Positions 6,261-8,269 of a stretch of 64,000 nt of DNA are shown piece by piece. Each line of letters starts with the position of its first letter. Position 1 is the first letter of the stretch. Location: NCBI GenBank assembly GCA_040753675.1, contig JBFMEB010000001.1, forward strand, positions 32,498 to 96,497, in the 5' to 3' direction. The position numbers and the translations under genes were made by a program. Origin of the DNA: Candidatus Omnitrophota bacterium. GTDB taxonomy: Bacteria; Omnitrophota; Gorgyraeia; JAHJTE01. The notes below the pieces were generated by a model. That model was not told where the DNA came from. It worked only from the letters and a program-made list of their open reading frames with translations, and did not search any database.

Positions 6261-6908
6261 CTATTTTCGGTTAAATTGGGTTTTAACCTCTTTATGCGTA
6301 AGCAGAACCCAAAAAATCAGACCAGGTAACCCAATAGGAAGAATATTTTCAAATAATGAGTTTAAGGAGTTAAGATTTTTGAATGCCATTTTTGCACCGG
6401 AAAAAATTCCTGCAGAAACAAAAACATCTAAACACAGCCCATTGTATAACCAAAGCTCAAATGAAAATATGACTGCTACCTCTGCTGCATATATACCTAA
6501 AACTCTTGCCCAGTTTTTAAATTTAAAAATTCCAATTGCTGATACAAAATAAGCTAACCACAAACAATAAAAAAATAATTCTGTCGGAAAAATTGGAGTC
6601 TTACATTGAACTGTAATAGATGGAGCATGGAAAAATGGGTAACTTACTGCCATCTTAATAGCCCTGCTAATAGGCGATCCTAAAAAAAATCTCAGCCAAA
6701 TAAATTCGTCTAACATTGGAATAACTAAAAACAGTATAGGATATATTATAATCCAAACTCCAAGAATTCTAATCGCAACTTTAGGCTGTTGTCTAACAAG
6801 CTTACGCATGAGAAAAATCAAACTTACCGAAATTGCTAAAGATAATGATAAAATTATACTTAAAACCAGTGGATTATCAATGATGAGAAACATAGCCACC
6901 TCCCTCAA
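6261..6908 (-). CDS. Polytopic integral membrane protein, function unknown
   Basis: 215 aa with 6-7 predicted hydrophobic helices and no recognisable catalytic motif. Its start overlaps the end of a pilin-like gene. Confidence 0.5.
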   Translation of the reverse strand: MREVAMFLIIDNPLVLSIILSLSLAISVSLIFLMRKLVRQQPKVAIRILGVWIIIYPILFLVIPMLDEFIWLRFFLGSPISRAIKMAVSYPFFHAPSITVQCKTPIFPTELFFYCLWLAYFVSAIGIFKFKNWARVLGIYAAEVAVIFSFELWLYNGLCLDVFVSAGIFSGAKMAFKNLNSLNSLFENILPIGLPGLIFWVLLTHKEVKTQFNRK

Positions 6909-7347
6909 AATGCTGTTTTTCTATCGACAAATCATACATTGCACCTACGGAAGAAAAGTTCCAAATTTTGCCTCTCCAATTAGGACCACCCATCCAGGAA
7001 TGAGGACAATATATCAACCAGTTAGGACTAAAACCACCTGTATTATCTAAAAACCAGTCGACATTGGCAGTGGCTGGGCCAACATCAACTTTATGTGGCG
7101 GAGGATTCTCTAAAAGGTTAAAAGGATCTTCGCTTGCGTCCATTCCCCACCAACGATTATTTCTAGCATAATAAAGCAAAGAGGCTGACTGCAATGCTCG
7201 CATTGTGGCATCTTCCTGCACTCCTAAGGCCTTATTGGCAATGTCTACAAAAGCCGAGACCGCAGCCGAAGCAATAATAGCAAGGATAGAAAGTACAATG
7301 ACGAGTTCTATGAGAGTGAAGCTTCTATTATTGAATTTTAAATTCAT
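6877..7347 (-). CDS. Prepilin-type N-terminal cleavage/methylation domain protein (pilin-like paralog 1)
   Basis: FTLIELVIVLSILAIIASAAVS class III signal-peptide helix and variable C-terminus with NVDWF...IYCPH motif. Confidence 0.75.
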   Translation of the reverse strand: MNLKFNNRSFTLIELVIVLSILAIIASAAVSAFVDIANKALGVQEDATMRALQSASLLYYARNNRWWGMDASEDPFNLLENPPPHKVDVGPATANVDWFLDNTGGFSPNWLIYCPHSWMGGPNWRGKIWNFSSVGAMYDLSIEKQHFEGGGYVSHH

Positions 7348-7356
7348 TTTTTAAAA

Positions 7357-7806
7357 TTAATGTTTTTTGTTCATGGTACGATTATATTCCGCGTGGTGAG
7401 AAAAAAAATCCCATATTTTTCCTCTAGCCATGTTGAAAGAATGGGGACACCATATTTGCCATATTTCATCGCCAATACCTGAAGGATCGAAATATAAAAA
7501 CCAATCTACATTACCAATACCTGGAATAGGTGGGTCTATCCCATTGGGAGGCTCAACAACAAAGCGTGGAGGATTTTCTAAGAGGCGAAAAGGCGGCTCA
7601 GTTTCATTCACTCCCCACCAGCGGCCATTTCTAGCATAATAAAGCAAACAGGCTGATTGCACTGCGCGCATTGTCGCATCTTCCTGCACGCCAAATGCTC
7701 TATTTGCAATATCTACGAAAGCCGAAACTGCGGCCGAGGCGATGATGGCGAGTATGGAAAGGACGATGACGAGTTCTATGAGGGTAAAGCCATAATTATT
7801 TTTCAT
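7357..7806 (-). CDS. Prepilin-type N-terminal cleavage/methylation domain protein (pilin-like paralog 2)
   Basis: MKNNYGFTLIELVIVLSILAIIASAAVSAFVDIAN identical to paralog 1 over about 60 aa; divergent C-terminus with NVDWF...IWCPH. Confidence 0.75.
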   Translation of the reverse strand: MKNNYGFTLIELVIVLSILAIIASAAVSAFVDIANRAFGVQEDATMRAVQSACLLYYARNGRWWGVNETEPPFRLLENPPRFVVEPPNGIDPPIPGIGNVDWFLYFDPSGIGDEIWQIWCPHSFNMARGKIWDFFSHHAEYNRTMNKKH

Positions 7807-7820
7807 TTTTTCTTTCTACG

Positions 7821-8269
7821 CTACCAATGTCCTGGAGAAGAAGCATCTTTTGTGTATCTTGCCCCTACTGTGTAAAACCAGTATTTGTTTCCTCTTTCTT
7901 CAGTAAAAAGATCCATATGAGGACAATAAATAACCCATATTGGAGTTGGAAGTAACGTCTGCCTCATAACTTCCCATTGTCCAATGTTTGCTGGGCGAAA
8001 CATGTTCAGTGCATGAGGAGGTGGATTTTCTAAAAGAAGAAAAGGGTCTTCCTCCAAGGCGAATCCCCACCAGCTGTTATTTTTTGCATAGTATAGTAAA
8101 GCAGCAGATTGCCTGCGCGCATTGTCGCATCTTCCTGCACCCCAAAGGACTTATTGGCAAGGTCAATAAAAGATGAAACTGCTGCCGAAGCAATAATAGC
8201 AAGGATAGAAAGTACAATGACGAGTTCTATTAGAGTAAACCCGCGATTTCTCTTCAATTTTAAATTCAT
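7821..8269 (-). pseudogene. Pilin-like paralog 3 disrupted by a 1-nt deletion near 8111-8112 (or a sequencing error)
   Basis: ORFs 8030-8269 (conserved N-terminus) and 7821-8057 (C-terminus EDPFLLLENPPPH...IYCPH) are two frames of one gene. The alignment to paralog 2 shows cgcgcag-gcaatc versus cgcgcagtgcaatc. Confidence 0.65.

Follow-up and report, generated by a model that had tools for sequence, protein, structure and literature searches.

Three probably ancient, tandemly arranged type IVa-pilin-like genes downstream of rpoD in a Candidatus Omnitrophota genome, one of them frameshifted

The subject of this analysis is a stretch of 64,000 nucleotides (nt), referred to as the window, from a 113-kb contig in the metagenome-assembled genome (MAG; locus-tag prefix AB1629) of an uncultured Candidatus Omnitrophota bacterium. 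Three adjacent prepilin-type genes, named copies A, B, and C, are located on its minus strand, immediately 3' of dnaG and rpoD. They are probably tandem paralogs of type IVa-pilin-like proteins that were duplicated long ago, with N-termini held by an assembly constraint and a deletion in copy A that is either recent or a consensus error. Rather than a switchable system for surface variation, the array is an ordinary pilin gene expansion, and no sign of programmed variation was found. For annotation, the locus is refined to a three-gene expansion of an uncatalogued pilin subfamily together with a probable pseudogene.

Copy A (7821-8269, minus strand) follows rpoD after 97 nt and lacks a single nucleotide; the repaired gene encodes 149 amino acids (aa). 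Copy B (7357-7806, minus strand; MEW6008061.1) begins 14 nt further on and encodes an intact prepilin-type protein of 149 aa. After another 9 nt, copy C (6877-7347, minus strand; MEW6008060.1) encodes an intact prepilin-type protein of 156 aa. These coordinates agree with a previous reading of the letters alone (the sequence-only reading), which had placed three neighbouring pilin-like paralogs directly 3' of rpoD. At the nucleotide level, the array appears as a direct-repeat family of 233 nt in three copies, spaced by 468 and 451 nt, and a 23-nt probe from the conserved part has three sites compared with none in 100 shuffles.

A prepilin N-terminus was recognised by a hidden Markov model (HMM) score above the curated cut-off, a short leader, a small residue at position -1, phenylalanine at +1, glutamate at +5, and about 20 hydrophobic residues. 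All of these features are found in copies B and C and in the 5' open reading frame (ORF) of copy A. The three 5' ends match PF07963 with 31.9-39.2 bits (cut-off 21.2) and TIGR02532 with 21.9-36.7 bits (cut-off 16.3), which confirms the pilin-like nature proposed earlier. The leaders are MNLKLKRNRG in A, MKNNYG in B, and MNLKFNNRS in C, each followed by FTLIEL with F1 and E5. When the family profile was compared with all PDB sequences, type IVa major pilins emerged as the best sequence matches, namely Geobacter PilA-N (1e-11), Neisseria PilE (4e-10), and Thermus PilA5 (5e-10), with GspG at 1e-4. The type IV pilin fold is defined by a long N-terminal alpha-helix packed on an antiparallel beta-sheet of four to five strands. 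An AlphaFold2 model of copy C, calculated with 33 family sequences, has a mean predicted local distance difference test (pLDDT) score of 86.5 and shows a helix from residue 12 to 63 followed by five to seven beta strands. Its closest PDB structures are gonococcal pilin 1AY2 (probability 0.85), PAK pilin (template modelling score 0.48-0.51), the gonococcal pilus subunit, and Clostridioides difficile PilA1, with E-values of 0.1-0.4. The architecture of A, B, and C is thus predicted to be pilin-like with a diverged head.

Compared with the type IVa major pilins Neisseria PilE, Pseudomonas PilA, Geobacter PilA-N, and Thermus PilA4/PilA5, the three copies share the short basic leader, the small -1 residue, F1, E5, the hydrophobic alpha-1N segment, the long alpha-1 helix, and the mature size of about 140-147 aa, in addition to being matched best by them in sequence and structure. 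They differ in a head family that is missing from Pfam and NCBIfam, in an invariant Cys-Pro-His (CPH) and a C-terminal His in place of the disulfide-bonded D-region, and in a gene position outside a pilus cluster, beside rpoD and an orphan membrane protein. With Geobacter PilA they share aromatic residues at positions 1, 24, 50, 51, and 57 (F1, F24, Y50, Y51, and W57), while position 27 is Ile. Phe, Trp, and Tyr together make up 12.9-14.4% of the residues, and the longest aromatic-free gaps are 22 residues in A and B and 25 in C. The 'e-pilin' heuristic, as outlined in a preprint, sets the minimum aromatic content at 9.8% and the longest aromatic-free gap at 22 aa, and expects aromatic residues at positions 1, 24, 27, 50/51, and 32/57 (bioRxiv 10.1101/668343). 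This aromatic-density heuristic does not demonstrate conductivity.

The age of the array follows from a comparison of the copies. The shared N-terminal block comprises 42 residues (F1 to A42) with identities of 95% between B and C and 88% for A-B and A-C; the identical N-terminus of about 60 aa described in the sequence-only reading is therefore both shorter and less uniform than proposed. Nonsynonymous (dN) and synonymous (dS) divergence was estimated by the Nei-Gojobori method, using 42 codons for the N-terminal block. Overall dS between copies is 1.2-1.9, so that synonymous sites are saturated. Within the block, dS amounts to 1.27 for A-B and 1.68 for B-C at a dN of 0.02-0.06, and only for A-C is it as low as 0.39, because these two copies have an exact run of 47 nt in common, as had been noticed before. 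For the middle and C-terminal parts, dS starts at 0.66 (middle part of B-C) and reaches saturation, with most values above 2, at a dN of 0.17-1.1; the C-terminal halves are 24-46% identical at the protein level. These values indicate that the N-terminal protein identity was kept by purifying selection and not by recent copying. Shuffling of the mismatch positions showed the A-C run of 47 nt to be longer than expected within the block (P about 0.009), as is an A-B run of 27-34 nt (P 0.001-0.03). A plausible explanation is that short stretches of the constant 5' region underwent gene conversion. These tracts are the sole recombination signal in the array; they make the constant region more uniform and add no diversity to the variable one.

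In a neighbour-joining tree built from the C-terminal parts, each copy has a different partner. Copy A pairs with the partial upstream gene of the related locus L090 (52%), copy B with P0004 of the same contig (59% in the C-terminal part), and copy C with P0002 of GCA_017973895.1 (55%), which is a single copy downstream of rpoD. Since each copy has a separate ortholog, the three lineages predate the split of these genomes. The duplications are accordingly old, and A, B, and C are best described from these alignments as diverged tandem paralogs.

Copy A is one T shorter than copy B in the context ATGCGCGCAG[T]GCAATC, between 8112 and 8113. The previously suspected 1-nt deletion near 8111 is thereby confirmed and placed, as is the resulting division into two ORFs (8030-8269 and 7821-8057). 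The 5' ORF encodes 79 aa consisting of the leader, the alpha-1 helix, and an out-of-frame tail. If one base is put back, a 149-aa protein with every family motif is obtained. Beyond the deletion, the frame remains open for about 97 codons, which has a chance probability of about 0.0015, and the missing T is the sole difference within an otherwise identical A-B tract of 35 nt. Both observations indicate that the frameshift is recent. It is not a programmed switch, and with modest confidence it is regarded as a very recent, real inactivating mutation.

A consensus or assembly error is a serious possibility in its place, albeit not the expected one; the organism would then have three intact genes, and the identity of the genes would be unchanged. 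The confinement of the change to one position of the 35-nt tract also fits an error, and the frame downstream of it reaches the normal stop with all family motifs intact. The A-type ortholog in L090 has an intact C-terminal half. Moreover, tandem paralogs with common tracts are liable to mis-polishing, and the assembly of a related genome breaks right after its pilin-like gene (L001/L092). On the other hand, inspection of the deletion site (CAG[T]GCA) revealed no homopolymer, where indel errors concentrate, and no short repeat. Furthermore, the fragments of copy A are absent from the protein collection, in which B, C, and the adjacent membrane protein are present; the deposited record itself thus seems to carry the frameshift.

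Two further interpretations of copy A were rejected. A programmed frameshift or slippage was ruled out, as the site GCA-GG-CAA contains neither a slippery heptamer nor a homopolymer. A fission resembling Geobacter PilA-N/PilA-C, with the 79-aa helix-only ORF and a separate head-domain ORF, was dismissed because the second ORF (TTG start at 8057) lacks a signal sequence and overlaps the first. At 8085-8110 (minus strand), the sequence CTGCTGCTTTACTATACTATG reads LLYY both in the repaired frame (AALLYYA) and in the shifted frame (LLLYYTM), which is probably a coincidence of repetitive sequence.

The C-terminal two thirds of the copies have no match in Pfam or NCBIfam, and the head domain is of an uncatalogued type that neither database covers. 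Its signature is W..PFxLLENPP..W..WxIxCPH..GxxWxY, usually ending in a terminal GH. Of the motifs that all copies were said to keep, I(Y/W)CPH is indeed present in the three of them, whereas NVDWF is limited to B and C and is replaced by NIGQWEV in A. An exhaustive profile search of 1.84 billion representatives retrieved 98 clusters (50% identity) at E<=1e-10, nearly all of them full-length; a word-indexed search found only seven close relatives. The locus search with a narrow alignment relied on N-terminal patterns and returned mostly generic pilins. A motif scan added L093, where another single-copy member has a different gene context, and a metagenome scan with repaired copy A gave no match. 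The CPH motif occurs in 97 of 133 retrieved proteins of 130-200 aa, and 90 of these 97 also have a His within the last eight residues. One clear subclade without CPH (P0037 and P0156-P0158) is also without the terminal His. These results delineate a family of pilin head domains that comprises about 100 clusters at 50% identity and bears a CPH/terminal-His signature. Organism names attached to its members are exclusively Omnitrophota, and most members are metagenome proteins. A rather speculative and unlikely proposal is that CPH, together with the C-terminal or nearly C-terminal His, makes up a site for a metal or for redox chemistry that replaces the usual disulfide in an unusually aromatic pilin head (13-14% F/W/Y), which would define a new class of Omnitrophota type IV pilins with a dedicated membrane partner of 210 aa. 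If this were true, CPH/His pilins might show metal-dependent stability, adhesion, or electron-transfer properties.

The sequence-only reading had interpreted the array as recombination- or slippage-driven variation of a surface protein. In such an arrangement, inter-copy recombination or frameshift slippage would switch or diversify a surface pilin, as in Neisseria pilE/pilS or in phase-variable pilins. This is very improbable here. A variation system is characterised by silent 5'-truncated cassettes, or by a switch site that contains a repeat tract or an invertible element, together with recent exchange in the variable regions, a combination that the array does not display. The identical tracts shared by A-C and A-B, the copy that is out of frame, and the strongly divergent C-terminal halves may all be cited in favour of variation. 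However, the identical tracts are confined to the constant 5' part, synonymous sites in the variable halves are saturated, and each copy has its own ortholog elsewhere, which speaks for stable lineages. Start codons and full leaders are present in all three copies, and none of them is therefore a silent cassette. The deletion lies outside any repeat tract, and no recombinase gene is found nearby. Inverted repeats were not detected in 6000-8500 around the array, and an invertible promoter or shufflon was rejected for this reason. A conserved N-terminus combined with a variable C-terminus is the default pattern of any pilin paralogs.

Several pilin-related sequences with constant and variable parts are common to the array and to Neisseria pilE/pilS, and some evidence of short conversion tracts exists in the array as well. 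In contrast to the 5'-truncated silent cassettes of pilS, A, B, and C are complete with leaders, their variable parts diverged anciently, and the conversion-like tracts are found in the constant region only. Another parallel is offered by cyanobacteria, Myxococcus, and Thermus, where several pilA-like genes, in tandem or dispersed, with conserved N-termini and divergent heads use one assembly machinery. The array resembles these multi-copy sets in its tandem paralogs with conserved N-termini and divergent heads, but differs from them in having one frameshifted copy and in expanding a single-copy module linked to rpoD.

That the genes encode type II secretion pseudopilins or Planctomycetota-Verrucomicrobiota-Chlamydiota (PVC)-type DUF1559/H-X9-DG proteins is scarcely tenable, despite the NCBI label 'type II secretion system protein' of copy C, weak N-terminal matches to GspG and GspH, and the H...G spacing seen in the sequence-only reading, as PDB sequence matches favour type IVa major pilins and the machinery nearby has PilM/N/O, as type IV pili do. 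The GspG, GspH, ComG, and PilA equivalogs match the helix only and far under their cut-offs; for GspG (TIGR01710), the major pseudopilin of type II secretion, 19.6-23.1 bits were obtained against a cut-off of 88.85, over the shared N-terminal helix alone. In the HMM search suggested for the DUF1559 group, neither TIGR04294 nor PF07596 matched any of the window copies at E<=1, and both are missing from the families listed for 33 members of the wider family (Pfam E<=0.1; NCBIfam E<=1), in agreement with the earlier remark that the proteins are distinct from this group. The H-x9-GK spacing described at the same time applies to copy C, while B has H-x6-GK and A has H-x8-GN. DUF1559/H-X9-DG proteins of Planctomycetota and Verrucomicrobiota likewise have a prepilin N-terminus, occur in multiple copies, and possess a conserved His followed by Gly near the C-terminus. 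They differ from A, B, and C, which have no HMM match to them, a spacing of x6 to x9, and GK or GN instead of the DG that the H-X9-DG motif requires after exactly nine residues. DUF1559 proteins are also larger than the A, B, and C proteins of about 150 aa.

Several observations weigh against the assignment of A, B, and C as functional type IVa-pilin-like paralogs. None of the structural matches is significant, the best Foldseek E-value being 0.11, and the head fold is consequently only loosely pilin-like. Copies A and C contain one Cys (in CPH) and B contains two (C55 and the CPH Cys). With a single Cys in A and C, these proteins lack the disulfide-bonded D-region that type IVa pilins usually have at the C-terminus; the Cys pair of this region, which marks diderm type IVa pilins, was not found. 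The three genes lie outside the pilus cluster of the window, which has a candidate major pilin of its own (22740-23201), so that A, B, and C may be major pilins, minor pilins, or not assembled at all. Among the window ORFs tested, none was recognised as a prepilin peptidase. For the wider family, taxonomy can be read only from the minority of members that carry organism names. Expression of the array is uncertain as well, since the 97-nt spacer between rpoD and A contains no promoter-like site, no evident Shine-Dalgarno/ribosome-binding site precedes A or C, and a terminator-like hairpin with a U-tract ends 13 nt before the start codon of copy A. This element occupies 8275-8321 (minus strand) in the spacer that separates the rpoD stop codon from copy A, with an RNA fold of -20 kcal/mol and a z-score of -2.2. 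It was missed by a simple terminator scan. An alignment of the spacers shows that its sequence is conserved in L001 (about 5840-5900), and it is likely to be either the rpoD terminator or a leader/attenuator element for the pilin genes.

The context of the array is conserved in related genomes. The order cvpA, NIF3-like gene, dnaG, rpoD, and pilin-like gene is kept in the loci L001 and L002. In the window, rpoD (8367-9944, minus strand; 525 aa) is the upstream neighbour of the array, with Sigma70 r1-r4 domains in the orthologous loci L001 and L002, and is itself preceded by dnaG (9959-11767, minus strand). L001/L092 and L002 each have a single pilin-like gene, L090 has at least two (an A-type followed by a B-type), and the window has three. 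In the window, a single-copy module kept downstream of rpoD has thus expanded in a lineage-specific manner. In L001, the rpoD-to-pilin spacer (5506-6000) has a length of about 500 nt compared with 97 nt in the window, and holds several similar short direct-repeat units (e.g., gcgagggataat..gacataa.ttg) that are absent from the window.

A polytopic membrane protein of 210 aa (6261-6893, minus strand; MEW6008059.1, annotated as hypothetical) is encoded 3' of copy C, the beginning of its ORF and the end of copy C overlapping by 17 nt. The protein has no Pfam or NCBIfam family, and a collection of 5.8 billion proteins yielded only three clusters of it. It adjoins a pilin-like gene, before or after it, in five independent loci. 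Besides the window, these are L002 (5313-5948), where the order is swapped and the protein (46% identity) is the neighbour of P0005, L090 (831-1463), L091 (628-918), and L092 (91-726), the last being joined to L001 through an overlap of about 40 nt. The protein may thus be a clade-specific partner of the pilin subfamily. It was considered as a prepilin peptidase and rejected, as it has one conserved Asp only and no Pfam or NCBIfam match. The closest subfamily of the pilins is hereby linked to an orphan membrane protein and to a fixed site downstream of rpoD.

Distant members of the family are found in other settings: in L087 the gene precedes minor-pilin-like genes, in L084 it is flanked by hflX and a MerR gene, and in L093 it stands alone; rpoD linkage and the membrane partner are therefore not universal to the family. 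One distant pair is arranged in tandem between acyl-CoA dehydrogenase and electron transfer flavoprotein (ETF) genes (L003), which indicates that tandem duplication recurs in this pilin family. The L003 pair (8001-9037) originates from the Omnitrophota MAG DeMMO2_11 and encodes Cys-rich proteins of 171 and 169 aa.

A complete type IV pilus-type gene cluster is located at 17385-30579 (minus strand), 9 kb from the array. It encodes a PilM/N fusion, PilO, a secretin, a T2SSE/MshEN ATPase, and a platform protein, and includes about ten pilin-like genes, the candidate major pilin among them. This cluster is likely to provide the assembly machinery for A, B, and C. Two of its genes (18522-18932 and 22282-22698) are themselves paralogs with near-identical N-termini (FTMMEIMITLVIIGVLA) and similar heads. 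Within the run of pilins, two small proteins (19444-19932 and 20173-20550, minus strand) have an N-terminal membrane anchor without a prepilin motif, and both end in W-x-V-x-GH-[VI]-HF (GHVHFQNL and GHIHFE).

A function can be proposed on this basis. The encoded design consists of a short basic leader ending in G/S, a mature FTLIEL, an alpha-1 helix of about 52 residues, and what is predicted to be a small beta-sheet head. A prepilin peptidase would cut and N-methylate the A, B, and C precursors. The processed proteins would then polymerise into, or prime, pili built by the PilMNO-secretin-ATPase-platform cluster. The near-identical N-termini would reflect the universal assembly constraint on pilin alpha-1 helices in addition to short gene-conversion tracts. 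Three different heads would confer alternative surface or adhesion properties, in keeping with the host-attached way of life proposed for Omnitrophota. In this phylum, type-4a pili are almost universal and have been linked to attachment and predation (PMC10066038). As Omnitrophota are thought to need type IV pili for host attachment (PMC10066038), alternative pilins could be specificity determinants.

Downstream of the membrane-protein ORF, the minus strand continues with tRNA-Met (6116-6190) and tRNA-Val (5852-5926), followed by genes for a CT398-like zinc-ribbon protein, RNase H, and the RNase P RNA (4303-4659, minus strand). Elsewhere in the window, tRNA-Ala (CGC) at 17230-17303 (minus strand) sits within the 5' end of a tetratricopeptide repeat (TPR)/membrane ORF of 592 aa (15529-17307), and the true start of this gene must therefore be downstream of the TTG. 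Across the window (1-64000), nearly all ORFs of at least 120 aa are on the minus strand and the GC skew is negative throughout, which is consistent with one replichore with strong strand bias.

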